A stretch of DNA of 63,934 nt, filler included, from an uncultured Methanosarcinales archaeon (lineage in GTDB: Archaea > Nanobdellota > Nanobdellia > Woesearchaeales > BS150m-G63): NCBI GenBank assembly GCA_964630685.1. It is 4 parts of 4 records of this genome, joined end to end, with 100 filler letters (N's around TTAATTAATTAA, not from the genome) between each part and the next. Parts side by side here need not be neighbours in the genome. Positions count along the whole stretch, not along the records: positions 1 to 8,885 come from CAZVVW010000002.1; 3 more parts are not named here. The stretch is one strand, 5' to 3'. This document shows positions 1 to 8,885 of this stretch, piece by piece; position 1 is the stretch's first letter, and each line of letters starts with the position of its first letter. The position numbers were made by a program, and so were the translations under genes. The notes below the pieces were generated by a model. That model searched no databases and was not told the origin of the DNA. It worked only from the letters and a program-made list of their open reading frames with translations.

Positions 1-751
1 CTTTGATATCTCTTTCAAGATTTTCTAATTTGGTTACACCAAAACAAGTTGTTGCTATCAATGCTGTAGCAATTAATGCTCCTTTAGCAGTTGTTTTCCA
101 ATCTTTTTTGATTATTTTTTCTAAATCTGAATTATTGATTTGTCTTTTCTTTTTTTCAAGGTACTTTTTTTGTAACCAAGAATTTGATTTTAAAAGTTCA
201 TAATCGATTCCTTTTTGTTCAAAATCCAATAATTCTTTTTCTCCACCAAAATATTTTGTCAAGTAATGACCTCTAGTGGTTGGAGTGATTTTATGTTTAA
301 TATTATGATATTGTTTAGTGTTTATTTTTCCAGAAGAGTATAATTCTATGAGTGTTTCAGCATGTTCTCTTCCAGAGAGCAAATCTCGTTCAAATTTTTT
401 GTATTCTTTTTTTGAAAGTTTGTTTTCATTGGTTGTGAATTTAAAAGAATTAGGATTGATTTTTTGAGTTTTTGATTTAATTGCTGGAGGAATTTTGTAT
501 TCTCGATTACCTTTAGGAATTCCTTCAGCTAAAGGTAGTTGTTTTGAGAATAAAGACAATTCTAATTGATTCTTTGTTTGAGGTGCTTTTGTTTCTTGAG
601 GTTCTTTATTTTGAAGATATTTAACATATTTGAAAATATTATTATCCCAAAATTTACATTCATGATGATCTAGTTCTTTTGAATCTAGCATCTTCTTATA
701 AATTTGTTCCATGTGAGCGATGCTCATGCTATCTAGTTCTTGTTTTTCCAT
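1..751 (-). CDS. Hypothetical protein, 3'-truncated by window edge (~250 aa visible, hydrophobic segment near the visible end)
   Basis: Manual translation from ATG at 751 (MEKQELDSMSIAHMEQ...GALIATALIATTCFGV...) stays open to the window edge; AT-rich promoter-like spacer upstream; absent from the ORF track because it has no stop. Confidence 0.75.
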   Translation of the reverse strand, partial: MEKQELDSMSIAHMEQIYKKMLDSKELDHHECKFWDNNIFKYVKYLQNKEPQETKAPQTKNQLELSLFSKQLPLAEGIPKGNREYKIPPAIKSKTQKINPNSFKFTTNENKLSKKEYKKFERDLLSGREHAETLIELYSSGKINTKQYHNIKHKITPTTRGHYLTKYFGGEKELLDFEQKGIDYELLKSNSWLQKKYLEKKKRQINNSDLEKIIKKDWKTTAKGALIATALIATTCFGVTKLENLERDIK

Positions 752-823
752 TTGATATAGAATTAAGTATTATTTACTACTTAGTAATGAATAGTTTGAT
801 TATTTATAAATCTTTCGTTTTAT

Positions 824-2170
824 TTATTGGATTAGTGTGATAAAGATTGGTGAGTTTGTTAAGGTGATTTCAGAAGAATCTGTTGTTTTTTCTTGTCCTA
901 AGTAGTTTGTTATTTTTACTGTTCCTTTTATTTCAGAGTCTAAAGGGGTTGATTCACTTTTCCAAACAACATAAACTGGATTTTTGTCTTTAAAGAGATA
1001 TTTGTATTGGTTGTTTTTTATTTCTGTTACTTTTGTAAATCCATCTAATTTTTTGATTAATATTTTGTAAGTGTAAAAAGATTGTTTTTTTTCATTTGAT
1101 TCTGTTAATAATCCCGTATGTTCAAATAAGTCGTTTGGGATTTCTTCAAAATCCCAGTCAGATAGAAACCAAAAAATCTTGTTGTATCCATTGTTGAATA
1201 AAATTGTAAAATATTTTATCATATCTTCTGCTTGTTTTTCTTCTGTTGATCCGAGTTCCCATACACCCCATTTAGGATTTAAAGTTGCAGAAGGTAAACC
1301 AGATTCTGTAGAGATTAATTCTTTTCCGGGACAAATTGAGTTCCATTGAGTGTTGTAATTTTTTAATTTTTGAGAGGCTAACCCATTTGGTAAAATATGG
1401 GCATCTATAAAATCAAAATAAGGACAAATTGTTTGAATAGTGCTTTTCCATCCTGTTAATTCATTTAATTCTTTATTGAAACTTATCCCAATTTTGCAAT
1501 CAGGACAGTTTGATTTAATTTTTTCATAAGATGTTTTGACCATGTTCACATAATCTTGTTTTGTACCTTCCCAAAAATCTAAATCAACTTCATTCGCAAC
1601 TTGCCAATATTTTACAGAGGGTAAACCTTTCATTAAATAGTCTAGATATTCTTCATAAATTGTTTTCTCTTGTGGACTATAATCTGTTTTAAAATCAGGT
1701 TGGATTGTTGGACTTTTAGTTGTTGTAAGAATTGTTACAATTAAATTAAGATTTGAGTTGTATGTAGAGATTCCTTGAATCTTTGTTTTATTAGGATATT
1801 TATTGCAATAATAAATGCCTTCTGAACACGAACAATCTGTAAATTCTGTTTCTATACAACAGCTTTTGCAATCCATGATGCTTGAAGGTTTTCCTTTTTT
1901 GATTATAAACCATCCAGGGCTTTCAGATAACTCTTCTCTAACGTAAATATCTCCCAATTCTTTTATGTAAGGTATTGTTTCTTTAGGGTTTTTTCCTGAG
2001 ATATGAATTCCAAAGTGACTCTCTTTGGGAGATTCTTGTTGAGGATTACAGAGAGCTCGTTCTTTTGAGTTTATTTTTTTATCTTGGTTTAAATCACAAG
2101 AATCGTAATTTGAGACACACCCAACTATAAATATGAATAGTAGGACCAAGTAAATTAGATTTTTGTTCAT
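824..2170 (-). CDS. Secreted/lipid-anchored glycoside hydrolase (clan GH-A TIM barrel, GH39/GH5-like)
   Basis: Signal peptide ending FIVGC; YWQVANE acid/base motif, DFIDAH, ISTESG nucleophile motif; small DLNQDKKIN EF-hand/dockerin-like loop. Confidence 0.7.
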   Translation of the reverse strand: MNKNLIYLVLLFIFIVGCVSNYDSCDLNQDKKINSKERALCNPQQESPKESHFGIHISGKNPKETIPYIKELGDIYVREELSESPGWFIIKKGKPSSIMDCKSCCIETEFTDCSCSEGIYYCNKYPNKTKIQGISTYNSNLNLIVTILTTTKSPTIQPDFKTDYSPQEKTIYEEYLDYLMKGLPSVKYWQVANEVDLDFWEGTKQDYVNMVKTSYEKIKSNCPDCKIGISFNKELNELTGWKSTIQTICPYFDFIDAHILPNGLASQKLKNYNTQWNSICPGKELISTESGLPSATLNPKWGVWELGSTEEKQAEDMIKYFTILFNNGYNKIFWFLSDWDFEEIPNDLFEHTGLLTESNEKKQSFYTYKILIKKLDGFTKVTEIKNNQYKYLFKDKNPVYVVWKSESTPLDSEIKGTVKITNYLGQEKTTDSSEITLTNSPIFITLIQ

Positions 2171-2218
2171 TATAAGGTGTTAGGTTAATTGAGTTTATAA
2201 AAATATTCATTGATTAGA

Positions 2219-2551
2219 TTATTTTTTATGTTTAATATTGAATATTTTGTTTAAGTGAGTTTTTACATTATTTTCAAGGTGGGGGTACTCACAATTACTA
2301 CAATCCCAGATTTTTTTAGAAGGTAATTTTTTTGAATAAGTCCATTTTCCATTAGGATTATCAATTAAACAACCACCTTCTTGATTATCTGTGTCGTAGT
2401 TAGGACAATAACATAAAAAACAGTTTAAATTATCCATATCATGACAAGGAATTTTTTGTTTATAACACATACATTCAGCTGGGTGATTGGTGCTTCTAGT
2501 TTCATAGTTATATTCTTTAATTATTTGGTTGATGTGATTTTCAAGATTCAT
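2219..2551 (-). CDS. Cysteine-rich small domain (zinc-finger-like) protein
   Basis: PCHxxxxLNCxxCYCP...GGC...IWDCSNCEYPH pattern; start moved to ATG 2551 (MNLENH) because the longer ORF runs into the repeat region. Confidence 0.7.
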   Translation of the reverse strand: MNLENHINQIIKEYNYETRSTNHPAECMCYKQKIPCHDMDNLNCFLCYCPNYDTDNQEGGCLIDNPNGKWTYSKKLPSKKIWDCSNCEYPHLENNVKTHLNKIFNIKHKK

Positions 2552-2823
2552 TTTTAAAAAATAATCTAATTCCTTAATGTATTTATTTAATTTTGAAAGT
2601 TTAATAATTTTTTGTTTTTTTATTAATTGGGAAGATTCAACATCGCGATAATTGCTGTTAAATACCCCGACGACCAACGGGAGGAGAGTTCAACGTGGTC
2701 GACTGACCGAAGGGAAGGAGAAGTTGAATTCTTACGTTACAGCGATATAGGCGAAGCCGTACGTTCAGTTTAGGGTGTGGCTGTCAGTTTACACATTAGT
2801 TAGTTCTTAGAAAAGGGTCGCCT

Positions 2824-3807
2824 CTACATCTGGATATTTGGGCAGAAATTGTATTTATGAACTTGATAAATACTTAGTGCAGAATAATCTTTTAAGATGT
2901 CATTAAATGTTGTTTTAATGTCCATCATTATTTCTCTAAATTGTTCGGCACTTTCTACTTCTAGATCAATTTCAAATTCCCAAGGTCCAAGAGATTTTAC
3001 AATATAGATGATATTGGGTTTTCTTCTACAATATTCTCTTAATGTTTTCTCTCTTTGTTCTGAAATGTTTCTGAAACCTATCAAAACTTTGTAATGAAGA
3101 AAAGGATATTTTGATTCATTCGGAACGATGTTATAATGTCTTATCACGCCAGATTTTTGTAATTTCCTAATTCTCTCGCCTACTGCGTCAGCACTTAATT
3201 TAATTTCATGGGCAATATCAACAGCTGTATTTCTTGAATTTTCTCCCAACATTAACAGAATTTTCCAATCATATTTATCCATCTTAACTGGAGAAGGGAC
3301 AGCACCAAAAAATGATTCTCTATATGAACTTGCTTGTTTTTTGTGAATAAGATAATCACGAATAAAATAATCTCCTCTGATGATTGTTGCAATTTGTCTA
3401 TCTGCTATATATTCTCCAAATTTTTTATCTAATTCTGTTAATGTTTTGTCAAGAAATTCCATGTTTTTTGCCCATGTGCCAAAAGCTAAATCAAATCTCC
3501 CATCACAACTAGCAATCCAAACAACATTTGGATGATTTTTAAGAAAATCTATCAATTCTTTTTCTTTTCCACTATCAAGATTTTGTAAACGTAAAAAATT
3601 CTTGTGAACTGTAAAACCTAATTTTGAGATGTCAATAACTGAATAGAAGAAAGAAATGATTTTTTCTTTGATTAATCTCTTAATCCGAAATCCGACAACT
3701 TGCTTAGATAATCCTACTTTTTTGGCAATTTCTGAATTGGACTGTCTTGAATTAATATCTAGTTGATAGAGTATTTTCCTGTCTTTTAAGTCCAATTTTA
3801 CTGCCAT
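2824..3807 (-). CDS. Lrp/AsnC-family regulator, tandem-duplicated (2x HTH + RAM)
   Basis: LDLKDRKILYQLDINSRQSNSEIAKKVGLS and a second MDKYDWKILLMLGENSR..IAHEIKLS HTH; GxxD motifs in both RAM domains. Confidence 0.9.
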   Translation of the reverse strand: MAVKLDLKDRKILYQLDINSRQSNSEIAKKVGLSKQVVGFRIKRLIKEKIISFFYSVIDISKLGFTVHKNFLRLQNLDSGKEKELIDFLKNHPNVVWIASCDGRFDLAFGTWAKNMEFLDKTLTELDKKFGEYIADRQIATIIRGDYFIRDYLIHKKQASSYRESFFGAVPSPVKMDKYDWKILLMLGENSRNTAVDIAHEIKLSADAVGERIRKLQKSGVIRHYNIVPNESKYPFLHYKVLIGFRNISEQREKTLREYCRRKPNIIYIVKSLGPWEFEIDLEVESAEQFREIMMDIKTTFNDILKDYSALSIYQVHKYNFCPNIQM

Positions 3808-3908
3808 ATTGTTATTTAATCTTTATTAGTATATAAATTTAGCGATTTTGTAAAAAATATGGCTAATAAGTTTAATATACTCTTAACTACTCTTATGTTA
3901 CTACTAAG

Positions 3909-4913
3909 ATGGAAAGAAAACTAGGAATAACAAAAAAGCTAGAAGACATGGCAGAAGAAGGAGGTTTAGATAGTTCTGTGGCTATGCTAAATCTACCTAG
4001 TGCTAATTATTGTGAAAAAAGAGCAGAAAGAGTTTATGAGGATGGAGGATTACAGCAGTCATGTTATGGTTGTGTTACTCAAGGGATTAAATCAAAAGAT
4101 ATTATTGATATTGATGAAGTAAAAAGAGTTATTGACTTCTTTGCTGAAAATTATGATACTAAGTTTATTACTATCAATGGTCGTGGTGATCCATTTAACC
4201 CTAGATTAAGTGCAGATAATTTAGAAAAGATTCGTTATGCACACGACCAATGGGGAATACAAGCTTATGTTTTTACAGCGGGAAATAATCTTGATGATAG
4301 GACTTGTCAACTATTAGCTGAAAATGAAGCTAATGTGATGATTAGTTTATTTGGAAATAGGTTCATTGATGCAGATTTTTTTAATGGAAAAGAGTACCCT
4401 GCAATGCCTAAACCATTTCAGAACCAAGCACAAATAGCTGAGAATCTTAGAAGGTTAATTGAAACTTACAGAGGAAGTGAAAGACAACCAGAAGAAGGAA
4501 CAACAAGAATTGGAATTAATTATGTTGTCTCTCAGAGTGATTTAGTTGATGGTGGTGCGAAGATTAGGGCATTAAAAAAAGCAGCCAATGATAATGGATT
4601 ATTTTTTGTAGCTAATACTGATTTCCAAAAACGCCCAGATGATGCAGTACAAAAAGCTTTTGAACAAATGGCAAATCAATATACTGATTTTAATTTGAGA
4701 CATAGCACGGCAGTTAATGGTCAGTGTCAGATGGGTGCAGGTTCTTCAGCAACAGTAGATTTTGATGGGACTTTATTACGTTGTCCCTACATGGATTCAT
4801 CTGAAGGTAATGGGAGATTTAATATTTTATCAGGCGAGAGAATTAGAGAAGTAGTTAGTGTTTATATGGCGGATAGATCATTTCCATGCGTGATGAGAAA
4901 ACATCAGAAATAA
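3909..4913 (+). CDS. Radical SAM-like protein with atypical CX16CX2C motif and SPASM/twitch-like C-terminus
   Basis: C-EKRAERVYEDGGLQQS-CYGC; INGRGDPF (GGEP-like); FTAG; C-terminal CxxGxxxxxVDxDGxLxxCP. Confidence 0.7.
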   Translation: MERKLGITKKLEDMAEEGGLDSSVAMLNLPSANYCEKRAERVYEDGGLQQSCYGCVTQGIKSKDIIDIDEVKRVIDFFAENYDTKFITINGRGDPFNPRLSADNLEKIRYAHDQWGIQAYVFTAGNNLDDRTCQLLAENEANVMISLFGNRFIDADFFNGKEYPAMPKPFQNQAQIAENLRRLIETYRGSERQPEEGTTRIGINYVVSQSDLVDGGAKIRALKKAANDNGLFFVANTDFQKRPDDAVQKAFEQMANQYTDFNLRHSTAVNGQCQMGAGSSATVDFDGTLLRCPYMDSSEGNGRFNILSGERIREVVSVYMADRSFPCVMRKHQK

Positions 4914-5032
4914 GAGGCGACCCTGTTTTAGTTATAGTTTTTACATTCTATTGTTGTGACAAGTCACACAAAGCCACACCTGTTTTTATCGTATTAGTAA
5001 GAATTCAATTGTATTTAACATTAGGAAATCCT

Positions 5033-6837
5033 TGTTAAACTCTCCGTTAGGATTGATTTTTAGTGCAACGATGCCGAAGGCAAAAAATCAAAGTCGAATT
5101 TTCACTTATATAATTTAGAGCGTAGCGAGTGTAACTGTCCGAAGGACTAAAGAGTTGGGGGCGTTCAATCTAGCTCGTTAGAGCCTTAAAGAACAAAAGG
5201 ATTGTAAGATGGCATGAATTAAAACCGCTAAGTTTTTATTATACATCAACTTAAGGATAATTATGTTAAATCAACCATTAATTAAATTTAATTTTTTTGA
5301 AGATAGTTTTGAAGAAGAACTAAATAAATTTAAAGATATTATTAAGAATTTAAATAATAGTAATGTTCATTATTCTAGTTTAAAGAATTTTCCCCCTTGC
5401 ATTATTGATAAAATAATATCTAAGGCAGATTCTAATACTCTGTATCTATCAAGATCAAATGCAATTTTGAATAACAATCTTTATTTTGGTGAGAATTTTA
5501 AATCACTAAATCGATTATTCTTAAGATCGCCTTTTATCTCCAATAAATGTAAAAATTGTATTCATTTTAAAAAAAATATTTGTCGAGGTTTATTGAATAA
5601 AAAGTTTTTAGAAAAGAAAGAACAAATTATTAAAAAAATAGGCTTAAAAAGATATAACGCGGTTAAAAGCGACTATGAAAATGGTTTATTTGTTTTTGGC
5701 TCTGTTTGTAATAACTCATGTAGATTTTGTGTCGATAAATTTGCTCCAGAAGAAGTAGTAAAGAAAATTCCATTTTTGTCAGAATATGATATTATTCATT
5801 TTTTACATTATCTATCAAAAAAAATTCAATGGGTTGGGACAAGTTATCATTGTGCAAGTGGAGAATTTTTTGATCATCCTAAATTTTTCAAGATTATGGA
5901 ATTTTTGCCATTTTTTATGTCTTCTAAATCCTGGCTTTTTACTAATTGTATTAGTCTTGATGAAGATATGCTCAAGATAATTAAGAAGAAAAACTTGAAA
6001 TTAATATTTTCTATTCATACTTTAAATGATGACATTAGGAAAAGGATAATGAATTATAAAGAAAATTTTAAAATTAAGGATAAACTAAAATTAGTAGATA
6101 AATACAATATTCGATATGAATGTTGGTTTGTTCCATTAAAATTTCTTATCAAAAGTGGTGATACAGATAATTCATTGAACTATCTCGTTAATTTTACAAA
6201 TACCAGAAAAATATCATTTAGCACTTCTTCTCCTAGCAAATATATTCCAGAAGAGATGAAAAAAGAGCTTTTAGTAGATAATTCATTAGTAAATAAATTA
6301 ATGAGGTATAATCATAAGATTAATTATGTTGATAATGGAGCAAAAGATATTCATAATCATAAAAGTGAAGATAATTCTTTTAAAAAGATTGCTGATCATA
6401 TAAAAAAGATTTGTAATGATAAAGGGTTGTTGGTACTAGCACCGAAAAGATCTTTTGATATTTTTAAAAAGGAATTTAGGAATAATATAAATATTGAGAT
6501 TAGGAAAGTAAATTCTTTTTTAGGTGAGAATATCGATATTTCAGGAGTTCTTACAGTAAAAGATTATGTTGAAGTAATTCAAAAAAGTAATCCTGGATAT
6601 GATTATATTATTATTCCCAAAAATTCTTTTGATATCAATCTAGATGATTTTATGCTTAATAGTATTAATGAGATCTACCATTATAAAAATAAACCATTGA
6701 TATTACTTTGATTTCTTGACTTTTGAATCTAATAAATTCGACCGAAGGGAGTGTATATGTGCGAAGCACCGCCCCCAACTCTTTTTTTGGTTCTTTTTTT
6801 AAAAGAACATTTAATGAAAATTCGATTGAGTTTAACA
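5033..6837. mobile_element. Putative gene cassette 2 bounded by three nested inverted-repeat pairs (radical SAM cargo)
   Basis: TGTTAAACTC 5033/GAGTTTAACA 6828; TCGAATTTTCA 5094/TGAAAATTCGA 6815; AAAGAGTTGGGGGCG 5149/CGCCCCCAACTCTTT 6770. Confidence 0.6.
5263..6711 (+). CDS. Radical SAM Fe-S protein with DUF512-like C-terminal domain
   Basis: CNNSCRFC motif, SGEFF, extra CKNC..C cluster; C-terminal NSFLGENIDISGVLTVKD...IIIPKNSFD resembles DUF512. Confidence 0.7.
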   Translation: MLNQPLIKFNFFEDSFEEELNKFKDIIKNLNNSNVHYSSLKNFPPCIIDKIISKADSNTLYLSRSNAILNNNLYFGENFKSLNRLFLRSPFISNKCKNCIHFKKNICRGLLNKKFLEKKEQIIKKIGLKRYNAVKSDYENGLFVFGSVCNNSCRFCVDKFAPEEVVKKIPFLSEYDIIHFLHYLSKKIQWVGTSYHCASGEFFDHPKFFKIMEFLPFFMSSKSWLFTNCISLDEDMLKIIKKKNLKLIFSIHTLNDDIRKRIMNYKENFKIKDKLKLVDKYNIRYECWFVPLKFLIKSGDTDNSLNYLVNFTNTRKISFSTSSPSKYIPEEMKKELLVDNSLVNKLMRYNHKINYVDNGAKDIHNHKSEDNSFKKIADHIKKICNDKGLLVLAPKRSFDIFKKEFRNNINIEIRKVNSFLGENIDISGVLTVKDYVEVIQKSNPGYDYIIIPKNSFDINLDDFMLNSINEIYHYKNKPLILL

Positions 6838-6946
6838 TCGGGCCCTGTTATATTCGTTTCCCATACGAAGTGTGGGAAACCTGCGTCCGCAGAGTTTTTG
6901 GATTACTAATCAATTCGACCGTAGGGAGACTATATGTCCGAAGGAC
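6729..6946 (+). repeat. 41-bp direct repeat pair (6729-6769, 6906-6946) forming double hairpins; third degenerate copy at 5118-5147
   Basis: 35/41 identical; differences include a compensatory stem change (GTGC-GAA-GCAC vs GTCC-GAA-GGAC). Confidence 0.85.
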
Positions 6947-7175
6947 TGGGGAGTCTAGTTCCTTCTAAAGAGCGAATGCGATACATCAAGAACAAGAATC
7001 AAGGGGGAGTTCTTTTTATCAAAGCCGAAGGCTCTTTTAGTTAGTACATTTAGGGGAGTTCCGTTCAATACAAGCGAACACAGTGAGCCTTCAAGAACAA
7101 GAAGAGAGGGGCGTTCAATTTTTACCGAAACTAGATATTTATCACTAAGTAGTAGTTATTAAACGAAACATTTAA

Positions 7176-7198
7176 AAAGTAGTAAATTTTACTACTTT
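7176..7198. promoter_or_regulatory. Palindromic operator overlapping the promoter of the RHH gene
   Basis: AAAGTAGTAAA-T-TTTACTACTTT perfect inverted repeat next to a TTTAAA TATA-like box; extra AAGTAGTA half-site at 7147. Confidence 0.55.
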
Positions 7199-7203
7199 AT
7201 AGT

Positions 7204-7347
7204 ATGAAAATTAAAGTTAGTGTTTCAATAGAAAAGGAATTACATGAAAAGGTGAAGGATAAAGTAGCCGTAAGTATATTCAGAAATACTAGCCATCTTG
7301 TAGAGCATGCTGTTGAATTATTCTTAAAGGAGGCTCAAAATGAGTAA
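7204..7347 (+). CDS. Small ribbon-helix-helix (CopG/Arc/MetJ-like) regulator, 47 aa
   Basis: Manual translation MKIKVSVSIEKELHEKVKDKVAVSIFRNTSHLVEHAVELFLKEAQNE; beta-strand then helix-NxS-helix pattern; overlaps next start codon. Confidence 0.8.
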   Translation: MKIKVSVSIEKELHEKVKDKVAVSIFRNTSHLVEHAVELFLKEAQNE

Positions 7348-8885
7348 TTTGCAAACTTTAGAGGAAATTGCAAATAATCTTGGAAATATGTTTAGGGCGA
7401 GCCATCCAGCTACACCAGTTTCAATAGACATTGATGGAAAAACAGCTGAACAGATTAAATTAGAATTGGAAGCATTGGGTGAAGATTCAGAGCAAAATAT
7501 AGTCTATATAAATGAAAGAATAGCCGAGATAGAAAAACTAACTGAAGATCCTTCTGATTTGAGTTCACCAACAGCTATTCAGAATGCAGCAAGAATTATC
7601 TCTGATGTTAAAAGAACAAAATCAAATATAAATGTTGGTGGAGAAACTGCAAAACAGTTAAATGATGATTATAAACAAAAATTGTTATTTGAATCAGGTT
7701 TTGAAAGCTATGAAGATGTTTCTACACAGATTGATAATCTATCATCTCAAAGAGCTAATCTAAGACAAAAATTTCTTGGAGGTCTTAGGTTTAAAGGTCA
7801 AATCAAAGATTTGGGTTCCAAAATTAATTCACTCTATGATCTTTCTCACACTCAACATGATGGAGTTAGAATTGGAGAACTTGGATACTTAGAAACTAGA
7901 CGTTTTGAGGATGCACAAGGCAAGTTATTTGGTAGATTTGCTAGCCAGTTATTTGATCAATATGATCAATTAGCAAGCCAATTAGTTAGAACCGATGATG
8001 AACAAAAAGCAGTTGCCCCTGCAATCCTTGAATCATTAACTGATGATTATGTCTCTAAATATTTTATGTCAAGAATTGATGCAGAATTAGAAGCAAATCA
8101 AAAACGAGATGATCATTACGGCAGAGAGAAAGTTGCAGTTTTAAGTGATCCAGCTCTTGTAGGTGAAGCATTATCTGTTCTTAGAGAAGGATTGAATCAA
8201 TCTCATGTTTTATGGGCAGGACAATCATATACTGAAGAACAAGAAGAAAGAGCAAGAGAATTGGATTCAAGATTAAGTGCTTTGCCCTATGAATTGAAAA
8301 GTATTGTTGAAAGAGGCATGATTAGAGGTAACAAAACTACAAATGATGAATTTGCAGAATTTGCAGATTATCTGACTCAAGTACCTATTGATATTCAACG
8401 AAGAGAATTATTGACATCACTTTCAACAGCTAAAGAACATGTATTGAGTGCTATATCTGATGATGATTTACCATATTCAATTACTGGTCAAAGATGGGAT
8501 CTTGAAAGATCTGCTAGCAACCTTGAACACTCATTAAAATCAACTGAGAAATCTGATTTTCTTAAAGAATTGGATATGGAAAAATGGGATGCTTTCAGAA
8601 ATAATGCAGGTGTTAGAGAAGTCTATGGTGCTGGAGCATTAGACTCATTTAATGATTTGATTAGGGGAGAAGTTTTTGATAGATTATTAGTAACACCAGA
8701 ACACACAAATGAATCAGTTGGGCTTGGTTACAAAGCTCTTTGGTTTAAAGATGCAGACTCAGTTGCCTATAACCTATTAAATTTCTGGAGAGAACCAGGA
8801 CATTCAGGAGAGCAACCCTTTTTATCAACACACTCAAGTTCAGAAAATACTCTTGGTGCACAATATATTGCATCATTAACAGATG
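7340..8885 (+). CDS. Hypothetical helical/coiled-coil protein, truncated at contig end
   Basis: Long ORF with AAGGAGG RBS; no motif recognised. Confidence 0.75.

Follow-up and report, generated by a model that had tools for sequence, protein, structure and literature searches.

A cassette array with hairpin sites and self-pairing ends in a Woesearchaeales genome, probably run by a XerA-like recombinase

The window, a stretch of 63,934 nucleotides joined from four records of an uncultured archaeon of the order Woesearchaeales (assembly GCA_964630685.1), carries three consecutive gene units on its first record. A tandem Lrp/AsnC regulator and a radical-SAM-like protein are encoded in the first, a radical SAM protein in the second, and a small ribbon-helix-helix-like ORF with a large ORF of no assigned function in the third (Table 1). 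These units are cassettes of an integron-like array, and their junctions are apex-deleted forms of a larger hairpin site. The third unit, which an earlier note on this DNA took to be cut by the contig end, is cut by the window only; it joins contig C23 via a 55-nt overlap and ends there at another site, its inner pairs (7054-7062 and 7110-7122) matching C23 and its outer pairs mismatching. The copy of the unit-3 gene in genome G001 ends at 140 aa.

Table 1. Features of the cassette array in the window
Feature	Position	Strand	Size	Remarks
Junction J0	2639..2659	+		short hairpin site with the apex deleted: AAC-A-2-nt bulge-4-bp stem-T-GTT; marks the distal array end
Cassette 1	2641..5018	+		inferred crossover AA^C to next AA^C; Lrp and radical-SAM-like gene
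Unit 1 pair A	2656-2665/5011-5020	+ (left half)	10 bp	outer recombinase arm
Unit 1 pair B	2724-2735/4997-5008	+ (left half)	12 bp	
Unit 1 pair C	2774-2782/4972-4980	+ (left half)	9 bp	
Unit 1 pair D	2814-2825/4913-4924	+ (left half)	12 bp	touches both stop codons; left half overlaps Lrp stop
Unit 1 pair E	3167-3181/4832-4846	+ (left half)	15 bp	fifth nested; Lrp CDS / radical-SAM-like CDS
Unit 1 pair F	3248-3262/3431-3445	+	15 bp	both halves within Lrp gene
Two GNA mini-hairpins (2707, 2751)	2707..2757	+		between blocks of cassette 1 left end
Tandem Lrp/AsnC regulator	2824..3807	-	327 aa	
Radical-SAM-like protein	3909..4913	+	334 aa	only CxxC present; nothing in Pfam; NCBIfam matches weak and below cut-off
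Cassette 1 right end	4913..5020	+		D', C', B', A'
Junction J1	5017..5036	+		short hairpin site
Cassette 2	5019..6835	+		radical SAM gene with pairs A, B, C
Unit 2 pair A	5033-5042/6828-6837		10 bp	exact
Unit 2 pair B	5094-5104/6815-6825		11 bp	exact
Unit 2 pair C	5149-5163/6770-6784		15 bp	exact
Branched end module	5053..5145	+		mini-hairpins at 5074, 5120, 5139
Radical SAM / DUF512-like protein	5263..6711	+	482 aa	
Five GNA mini-hairpins (6742, 6761, 6919, 6938, 7025)	6742..7031	+		
Junction J2	6834..6849	+		shortest hairpin site; bridged by one run X1 contig
Cassette 3, left part	6836..8885	+		goes on in C23
Small ribbon-helix-helix-like ORF	7204..7347	+	47 aa	Pfam below cut-off
Large ORF, no assigned function	7340..8885	+		runs on into C23

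The nested inverted repeats of the window are confirmed as real and far above chance. All seven pairs that the earlier note had described (A to D of unit 1, A to C of unit 2) are exact and lie where it had placed them. The nested-chain scores of units 1 and 2, computed without the outermost pair, were each reached by 0/200 dinucleotide shuffles and by 0/78 non-cognate end pairings. A genome-wide comparison gave the same picture: when the flanks of 1267 genes or gene pairs in the source genome (G000) were scored, the four top values (28-43) all belonged to cassettes, both window units among them, against a 99th percentile of 14.8 and a next best score of 19.4. Pairs E and F sit within intact reading frames, pair E is missing from three non-cassette copies of the Lrp and radical-SAM gene pair, and the AAC/GTT core is absent from the inner blocks of the window units.

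In its full form of 74-185 nt, the hairpin site reads ATT-N5-TAA / CA-(2-3-nt bulge)-N4 / TTA-N5-AGT ... apex ... TAA-N4'-TG-TTA. This anatomy and its compensatory pairs come from 80 long and 9 short distinct sites, collected with a finder that requires pairing, so that covariation counts are partly built in; looser finders gave false matches in AT-rich DNA and were replaced by this stricter one. The predicted fold mimics a dif site (11-6-11) with a 2-3-nt bulge: the left spacer of 8-9 nt shrinks to 6 upon folding, four spacer positions are paired with compensatory changes (partly built into the finder) next to a one-sided bulge, and the inner arm pairs in register with no extrahelical base. 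Each cassette is laid out from AA^C through hairpin site, left end and cargo to a right end closing in ATT-N5-TAA. The left-arm motif was found in 111 of the 301 genomes of the host's order. For the eight short sites with a long site within 8 kb, the latter lay downstream only in five, on both sides in two and upstream only in one, which is no more than a hint about the placing of short sites. The hairpin is linked to its downstream arm (observed value reached by 0-5 of 500 shuffles, against 284-431 when the upstream arm was taken). Two hairpins recur with their downstream flank unchanged and another flank upstream. Exchange also takes place inside hairpins, since the hairpin of locus L342 is unlike that of contig C6 as far as the right inner arm, and the two halves do not match in 39 of 166 hairpins.

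The 9-14-nt stretches between the window units are truncated hairpin recombination sites and no mere spacers. J0 has no consensus ATT-N5-TAA arm in its left flank and folds weakly alone (z 0.1); neither J0 nor J2 folds better than shuffles, and J1 is covered unchanged by one contig in each of the sequencing runs X1 and X2. Having neither inner arm nor apex, the three junctions probably lock the cassettes in, although cassettes 1 and 2 retain perfect pairs, which fits poorly with long-term locking. Two points escaped the earlier note: a larger conserved hairpin, of which the junctions are deletion forms, and the nature of the recombinase, which is XerA-like and no IntI.

Cassette ends match each other rather than their neighbours. 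The outer arm agreed 9/9 with the cassette's own far end in 27 of 40 cassettes and with the adjacent flank in one (p 9e-8, overstated like all our p-values because the genomes are kin); at metagenome loci, chosen by one exact motif, the figures were 20/39 and 1/39. The nested chain beat every non-cognate pairing in 31/40 cassettes, failing to do so in nine, and in 35/40 of the metagenome set. A virtual circle junction folded better than the array junction in 33/35 cases, and better on the AACAT strand in 32/35. That strand carries 120 C-closed GNA triloops, the loops being chiefly of this three-base type (120 vs 17 GNNA); the window cassette ends have 10 mini-hairpins on the plus strand and none on the minus strand. 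The end module of cassette 2 also occurs on C31 and in a genome of another family, with a summed contig depth in run X1 of up to about 1500 vs 11.

The methyltransferase cassette of C6 recurs in L342 between other neighbours at 85% identity. A bacterial promoter scan stayed at chance level (bacterial models, archaeal host). Pfam, searched with 51 cargo proteins, gave no replication or virion family, though many of these proteins had no match at all. Whole genes fold in 10/44 cassette ORFs vs 1/120 controls (drawn from 302), and more weakly by energy (z below -2 in 9/44 vs 6/50, p 0.007); as a general rule this was rejected, and it is absent in units 2 and 3.

Where a site-selected region held a recombinase gene, this gene lay downstream on the same strand in 20/20 cases (10/10 in 40 regions, 7/7 in 77 loci and 3/3 in 7 regions). 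Judged by its sequence, the enzyme appears to be a XerA-like tyrosine recombinase without the I2 insertion of IntI: a solved IntI aligns to it in two pieces, and its motifs, where the distance could be measured, are 56-65 aa apart (a value of 28 being a misread) vs 104-105 in IntI. The site by the gene is an unbulged, dif-like equivalent of attI, ATT-N5-TAA / CA-NN-TA / TTA-N5-(AGT); a dif-like site starting with ATT was present 40-170 bp (about 100) upstream in 22/32 clade loci vs 1/15 housekeeping-like loci. The array-adjacent recombinases L147, L155, L171 and L178, as well as L072, fall outside this 32-row clade in a quick-method tree. The earlier note, having seen no recombinase in the window, had suggested a wider search, which yielded a XerA-like candidate on C6, not contiguous with the window array, and neither IntI nor Y1 HUH. 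The candidate scores 216.7 bits for the XerA family (cut-off 220) and the C5 copy, a housekeeping XerA in its own right that has a perfect dif, 281.5; the two are 45% identical and belong to different clades. IntI was not found in the source genome (96.6% complete), and its model exceeded the cut-off in 0/301 genomes of the order and in 5/5 positive controls. An IS200/IS605 or PATE-type hairpin element was rejected because the source genome has no match to a Y1 HUH transposase (control detected in 6/14). A viral origin was likewise rejected, the best relatives of the recombinase reaching at most 43% (80 loci) and the strict motif having 0 matches in viral contigs.

We consider it probable that an I2-less XerA-like tyrosine recombinase runs this integron-like cassette array, of which the window holds the distal part. 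The free cassette would be a single-stranded circle of the AACAT-carrying strand, in which the hairpin, together with both cassette ends, would take on a dif-like fold; the private blocks B, C, D and so on would lengthen the stem, and the GNA mini-hairpins, presumably resistant to nucleases and SSB, would occupy the branches. The recombinase may swap one strand pair at AA^C with a double-stranded dif-like site, for which the shared CA would suffice. Bulge and spacer heterology would prevent a lethal second exchange, in integrons the job of I2 and extrahelical bases, and replication would resolve the junction. In the array, a cassette's own ends could pair with the two flanking hairpins into a four-way junction, the resolution of which would excise exactly that cassette.

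The array shares much with integrons (IntI, attI, attC; archaeal integrons and CALINs, Ghaly et al., 2022, PMC9668308), namely hairpin sites, all on one strand, whose cores are AAC/GTT and whose apex varies, a recombinase gene with an attI-like site at one array end, an inferred crossover at AA^C, best matches between own cassette ends, and comparable cargo. The sites show RYYYAAC ... GTTRRRY with a variable terminal structure, as attC does, those of the window having no apex. The differences are the missing I2 insertion, dif-like, sequence-conserved arms, a spacer that is paired with a 2-3-nt bulge where the integron central spacer is unpaired, cassette-private nested end pairs, and an inner arm (the integron L arm) without extrahelical bases as defined in the available part of PMC2727003. 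Moreover, the cargo may face either way and often brings its own regulator, whereas integron genes are mostly promoterless and co-oriented. The idea in the earlier note of a capture and shuffling system is partly supported: mobile cassettes with integron-like AAC/GTT boundaries and several levels of pairing are borne out, as is the part played by a tyrosine recombinase.

The pdif sites of Acinetobacter are duplex, and their orientation alternates. The pdif modules (available part of PMC6449649) resemble our arrays in carrying accessory genes between dif-like sites, and differ in that the sites here are hairpins on one strand beside their own recombinase. IMEX of the CTX-phage type, which use a folded single-stranded attP and XerC/D (PMC5357621 and PMC7790495, in their available parts), likewise mimic dif with a folded strand (here predicted), employ an I2-less Xer enzyme, and combine single strand exchange with replicative resolution, as we infer here. 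Unlike these, our system shows no phage, its paralogue and site are separate from chromosomal XerA/dif with no hijacking of the host, and many cassettes keep their hairpin after integration and are probably excisable. Archaeal XerA/dif, as presented in the available parts of PMC5357621 and PMC8371274, agrees in fold, probably in protein family, and in an 11-6-11 site beside the gene, but it has one chromosomal dyad, that of our genome adjoining the C5 paralogue, instead of many arrayed sites. Our literature searches found no description of such a system.

It is unlikely that an Xer enzyme recombines the cassettes on duplex dif-like sites, with hairpins and nested pairs only protecting or compacting them during single-stranded transfer. 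The dif-like arms, the XerA-like enzyme and the right half of each site, which is TAA-N6-TTA in duplex DNA, would suit this, and dif modules between dif-like sites exist (PMC6449649, available part), but the left spacer attains 6 nt solely when folded, the hairpin moves with the downstream cassette, and the spacers vary among sites, by which ordinary two-step exchange is blocked (available part of PMC2727003). It seems quite improbable that this is an ordinary archaeal integron or CALIN, with an IntI that the assembly lacks or that works in trans. RYYYAAC/GTTRRRY-like cores, an 8-nt left spacer like that of the attC bottom strand, typical cassette cargo and the Woesearchaeales CALINs of PMC9668308 Data S1 speak for it. 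It is opposed by the lack of IntI in the source genome and the 301 order genomes, by the non-IntI gene at the intI position in 20/20 cases, by cargo ORF orientation (25 minus vs 24 plus in 40 cassettes), and by a paired spacer with no extrahelical base in the inner arm, a combination that lowered IntI bottom-strand recombination 8.5e4-fold (PMC2727003, available part).

The structures might instead act in RNA, for example in a transcript or an intermediate of reverse transcription by which cassettes are made or moved, a very improbable reading. CCGNAGG on the opposite strand presumably resembles a UNCG loop, and folding reaches into coding sequence, but the strand bias tracks the site and not gene orientation, and none of 11 Rfam matches attained the gathering score. 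The predominant three-base GNA loops are, moreover, a DNA-stable form (PMC13037366). That nesting records successive rounds of capture, one layer each, as the earlier note proposed, is extremely improbable, even though shells are modular (C25 and C28 of the source genome share outer ends around unrelated cargo) and cassette 3 appears composite. Block B', the right half of pair B, ends 9 nt before AAC in 24/40 cassettes, the inner window blocks have no recombination core, and pairs E and F interrupt no reading frame. Since the B' position is fixed, the inner blocks have no core and a shell is common to unrelated cargo, each cassette is to be seen as having a single designed fold, which the nesting makes up. 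Chance or an assembly artefact has a practically negligible probability: the genome is AT-rich, repeats break the assembly here and runs X1 and X2 may be its source, but the shuffle and flank-unit tests reject chance, the non-cognate pairings agree, and many genomes show the same architecture, with short sites in six further ones (G001, G022, G121, G122, G239, G344).

The circular junctions and empty sites anticipated in the earlier note did not appear in the Logan contigs of four runs (contigs drop rare forms), and none of 77 metagenome loci was a terminal-repeat contig. A perfect arm across one hairpin occurred in 5/104 sites, with a top cross-hairpin nested score of just 13.3. Its proposed comparison with relatives revealed no demonstrable empty site, because upstream matches were absent or ended short of J0: window positions 800-2600 matched only short AT-rich bits in five genomes, and the 19.8 kb upstream had 0 matches in G001 and matches stopping about 5.5 kb before J0 in G002 and G003. 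As neither circle nor empty site was seen, activity and mechanism of the array are inferred. Kinship of the cassettes to the genome's tRNA-adjacent hairpin inserts was rejected, as these have no similarity to cassette modules.

Cassette capture is said to require the I2 helix, and a Xer-like ancestor without I2 is so far only a proposed scenario (PMC7790495, available part). Here a natural array system appears to use an I2-less enzyme, and roughly one in three of the genomes sampled from the order carries its motif, so that the ancestor scenario can be put to the test with a single 270-aa protein and oligonucleotides. It is conceivable, if rather doubtful, that we are dealing with a separate, widespread gene-capture platform, sister to or older than integrons, which solved single-strand recombination in DNA (through a bulge in the spacer and through self-pairing ends by which the four-way junction is formed in advance) and not in protein (I2), through self-folded single-stranded circles, and whose private pairs arise by templated self-copying that rewrites even coding sequence and turns chromosomal genes into cassettes. 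The sites might find use as a compact tool for recombination, and the arrays account for broken contigs and for the turnover of accessory genes in these small genomes. For the question of how cassettes are made, unit 1 offers a before-and-after pair, as its Lrp and radical-SAM genes occur bare in three other genomes and the extra perfect pairs are present only in the cassette form.

The nested cassette array is real and lies well above chance. The seven inverted-repeat pairs listed in the earlier note are all exact, and the nesting it had singled out was borne out against shuffled controls: with the outermost pair excluded, the observed score was reached by none of 200 shuffles in either unit 1 or unit 2, and by none of the 78 non-cognate pairings of each. 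By nested-pair score, the four highest among 1267 gene-flank units of this genome (0.94 Mb, 96.6% complete) were all cassettes, and unit 1 holds two extra 15-bp pairs within its genes. The third unit (an RHH-like ORF and a large ORF) does open in the window, as had been proposed, but it is not stopped by the contig end, since it continues on contig C23; there its inner pairs match and its outer pairs do not, which makes unit 3 either a hybrid unit or a misassembly caused by a repeat. Junction J1 was found unchanged in single contigs of the sequencing runs X1 and X2, and J2 likewise in X1, although both runs may be the assembly's own source data.

The ends of these cassettes are private. The arm following a hairpin matched the far end of its own cassette at nine of nine positions in 27 of 40 cassettes, versus 1 of 40 for the flank of the same hairpin, and the same comparison in metagenome loci (77 distinct loci used, from at least 126 matching stretches) gave 20/39 and 1/39. 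Hairpin stem type was linked to the downstream arm and not to the upstream arm; two hairpins recur with 40 identical downstream bases and different upstream bases. This matching of own ends, together with the tie of the hairpin to its downstream side, points to a crossover at AA^C, where it also falls on the bottom strand of integron attC sites. Nested private blocks outscored every non-cognate pairing in 31 of the 40 cassettes and in 35 of 40 in the metagenome set and are, on sequence grounds, general across cassettes. Contig C31 amounts to a complete cassette, with five such pairs. In C25 and C28 one common shell encloses unrelated proteins. A methyltransferase cassette of contig C6 recurs in the fetched locus L342, identical at 855 of 1004 aligned positions and flanked on either side by other neighbours, although the L342 hairpin differs from that of the C6 copy up to the right inner arm. 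As to the circularisation envisaged in the earlier note, neither circle junctions nor empty sites were seen in the contigs of four runs or in the 77 metagenome loci.

In each junction of the window, AAC-A is followed by a bulge of 2 nt, a stem of 3-4 bp and T-GTT. This short form occurs also on C30 and C31 and, outside this genome, in G001, G022, G121, G122, G239 and G344. A long form, which has in addition an inner TTA/TAA arm and a branched apex, is found on C6 and C21 and also on C25, where the contig end cuts it. From 51 fetched regions and nine pieces of the genome under study, and after unbulged calls had been discarded, 89 distinct bulged sites (80 long ones of 74-185 nt and 9 short) and 40 cassettes were called. 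The consensus reads ATT-N5-TAA, CA, bulge, N4, TTA-N5-AGT, apex, TAA, N4', TG, TTA, with the bulge being TC in 64 sites, TT in 11, TAT in 11 and another sequence in 3. In 16 short sites tallied by eye, the join of N4 to N4' fell within -2 to +3 nt and was exact in 5. Once folded, the consensus would constitute an 11-6-11 dif-type site, as dif is defined in the available parts of PMC5357621 and PMC8371274. The left-arm pattern of the long form gave 218 matches within the order, spread over 111 of 301 genomes (108 of 298 after removal of three unpublished genomes), versus 10 genomes for the reversed control pattern, and was also present in 85 of 251 genomes of a phylum sample, other orders of the class among them.

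The earlier note reported no recombinase in the window; a candidate is encoded elsewhere in the genome. Two tyrosine recombinases were found: the one on C5 scores above the XerA cut-off and is the housekeeping xerA, and the one on C6, a protein of 270 aa whose alignment shows intact catalytic residues, terminates a cassette array; about 100 bp upstream of its gene lies a dif-like site without a bulge. The C6 copy reached 216.7 against the XerA cut-off of 220 and, in two pieces, 190 against the IntI cut-off of 265; its alignment with solved IntI is gapped, the structures nearest to its predicted structure are XerA, and its closest named relative (87%) carries the label Candidatus Woesearchaeota. 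A quick tree of 104 proteins put the C6 copy within a 32-row clade (SH-aLRT 96) separate both from 12 IntI-like rows and from the housekeeping XerAs. Five proteins encoded next to arrays fall outside this clade. A dif-like site starting with ATT precedes 22 of the 32 clade members versus 1 of 15 housekeeping-like proteins, several loci having less than 200 bp of upstream sequence. In regions picked for their sites only, a recombinase turned up in 10/40, 7/77 and 3/7, in every case downstream and on the AACAT strand. Among 301 genomes of the order no IntI was detected, with a threshold at which 5/5 controls were recovered. The assembly does not join the window array to C6; a link between them is suggested by contig ends that carry matching modules. 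Many recombinase-adjacent sites retain a partial inverted copy, and the recombinase-adjacent site looks as if it had derived from a cassette site. The same HTH and IscS-like neighbours in this genome and in G001 mark the platform as chromosomal.

A single-stranded folding signature accompanies these sites. In 33 of 35 cassettes (the 40 minus five whose length or distance from an end did not suffice) the virtual circle junction was more stable than the array junction when folded, and the AACAT strand folded better than its complement in 32 of the 35. This strand carries 120 C-closed GNA triloops; DNA mini-hairpins of this kind withstand nucleases and SSB and are found at single-strand origins, according to the part of PMC13037366 available. 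Nested pairing extends into the coding sequence of 10 out of 44 ORFs in cassettes, against 1 of 120 control ORFs, with a weaker signal in the folding-energy test, and was not found in units 2 and 3. In unit 1, the Lrp gene has a z score of 6.4, against -1.1 to 0.7 for five non-cassette homologues. The Lrp and radical-SAM pair occurs without cassette ends in three loci (L409, L410 and L189), and a 15-bp cross-gene pair is confined to the cassette copy, where it was reached by 0 of 500 shuffles; the best cross-gene matches of the bare copies were reached by 77, 291 and 386. The pair yields GERIR in both proteins, and its glycine is absent from all compared Lrp and radical-SAM homologues. This single case suggests that folding is perfected once a gene has turned into a cassette, whether through selection or through templated copying.

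Judged from these sequences, the array belongs to a widespread integron-like system with a predicted I2-less recombinase. Its general working resembles that of integrons, whereas the arrays depart from them in three defining features: I2, extrahelical bases and the unpaired spacer. The nine attCs from archaea that Ghaly et al. show in print (PMC9668308) are canonical and unlike the present sites; Data S1 of that paper lists Woesearchaeales genomes bearing attC clusters, some of which could overlap with these sites. The system is not a phage IMEX either, and no published account of this layout was found in the literature searched, beyond whose reach most subscription papers lay. We consider a single-strand capture mechanism likely, in which a cassette, circular and folded, would exchange a single strand with a duplex dif-like site, the bulge would take over the role of I2, replication would resolve the product, and end pairing would set which unit is excised. 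We infer each of these steps by analogy with integrons (PMC8946536) and CTX phage (PMC5357621, PMC7790495), as far as the available parts of these sources describe them.

Coordinates of features in the window, in the genome under study (G000) and in related genomes and fetched loci
Location	Feature	Remark
Window 1-8885	terminal part of contig C2	rest of window: other contigs beyond N linkers
Window 824-2170 (-)	448-aa protein, signal-like N-terminus	no Pfam hit; no DNA-level match in five relatives
Window 5053-5094	end module	summed contig depth in X1 ~1500, vs 11
Window 6850-7000	end module	summed contig depth in X1 ~350, vs 11
G000:C3:34944-35020	tRNA-Arg, then insert and copy of its 3' end	sequence unrelated to cassette modules
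G000:C5:59683-59710	perfect 11-6-11 dif	just upstream of housekeeping xerA
G000:C6:2684-4566	HTH gene and IscS-like gene after recombinase	names by eye
L034:2786-2945 (G005)	recombinase-adjacent site	perfect unbulged 160-nt hairpin
G022:C43:10199-10840	second recombinase, internal stop	genome has long and short sites
L144:6722-6954	cassette without ORF of at least 60 aa	size range of the three, 105-231 nt
L145:4797-4903	cassette without ORF of at least 60 aa	
L157:8001-8228	cassette without ORF of at least 60 aa	

The two end modules of the window are common in the community. Three 1.1-kb contigs (C33-C35), with 38-43% GC in a genome of 31% GC, may be contaminants. In G001, a homologue of the large gene of unit 3 (L056, on C11; 76-82% identical) lacks cassette ends, stops after 140 aa and follows what by eye is an apparently decayed RHH gene; it may be a cassette in decay or the chromosomal gene from which the unit-3 gene came. 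In the same genome, a cassette between two short sites (L057, on C23) begins directly after a tRNA-like sequence (by eye), a position that suggests a secondary insertion site.
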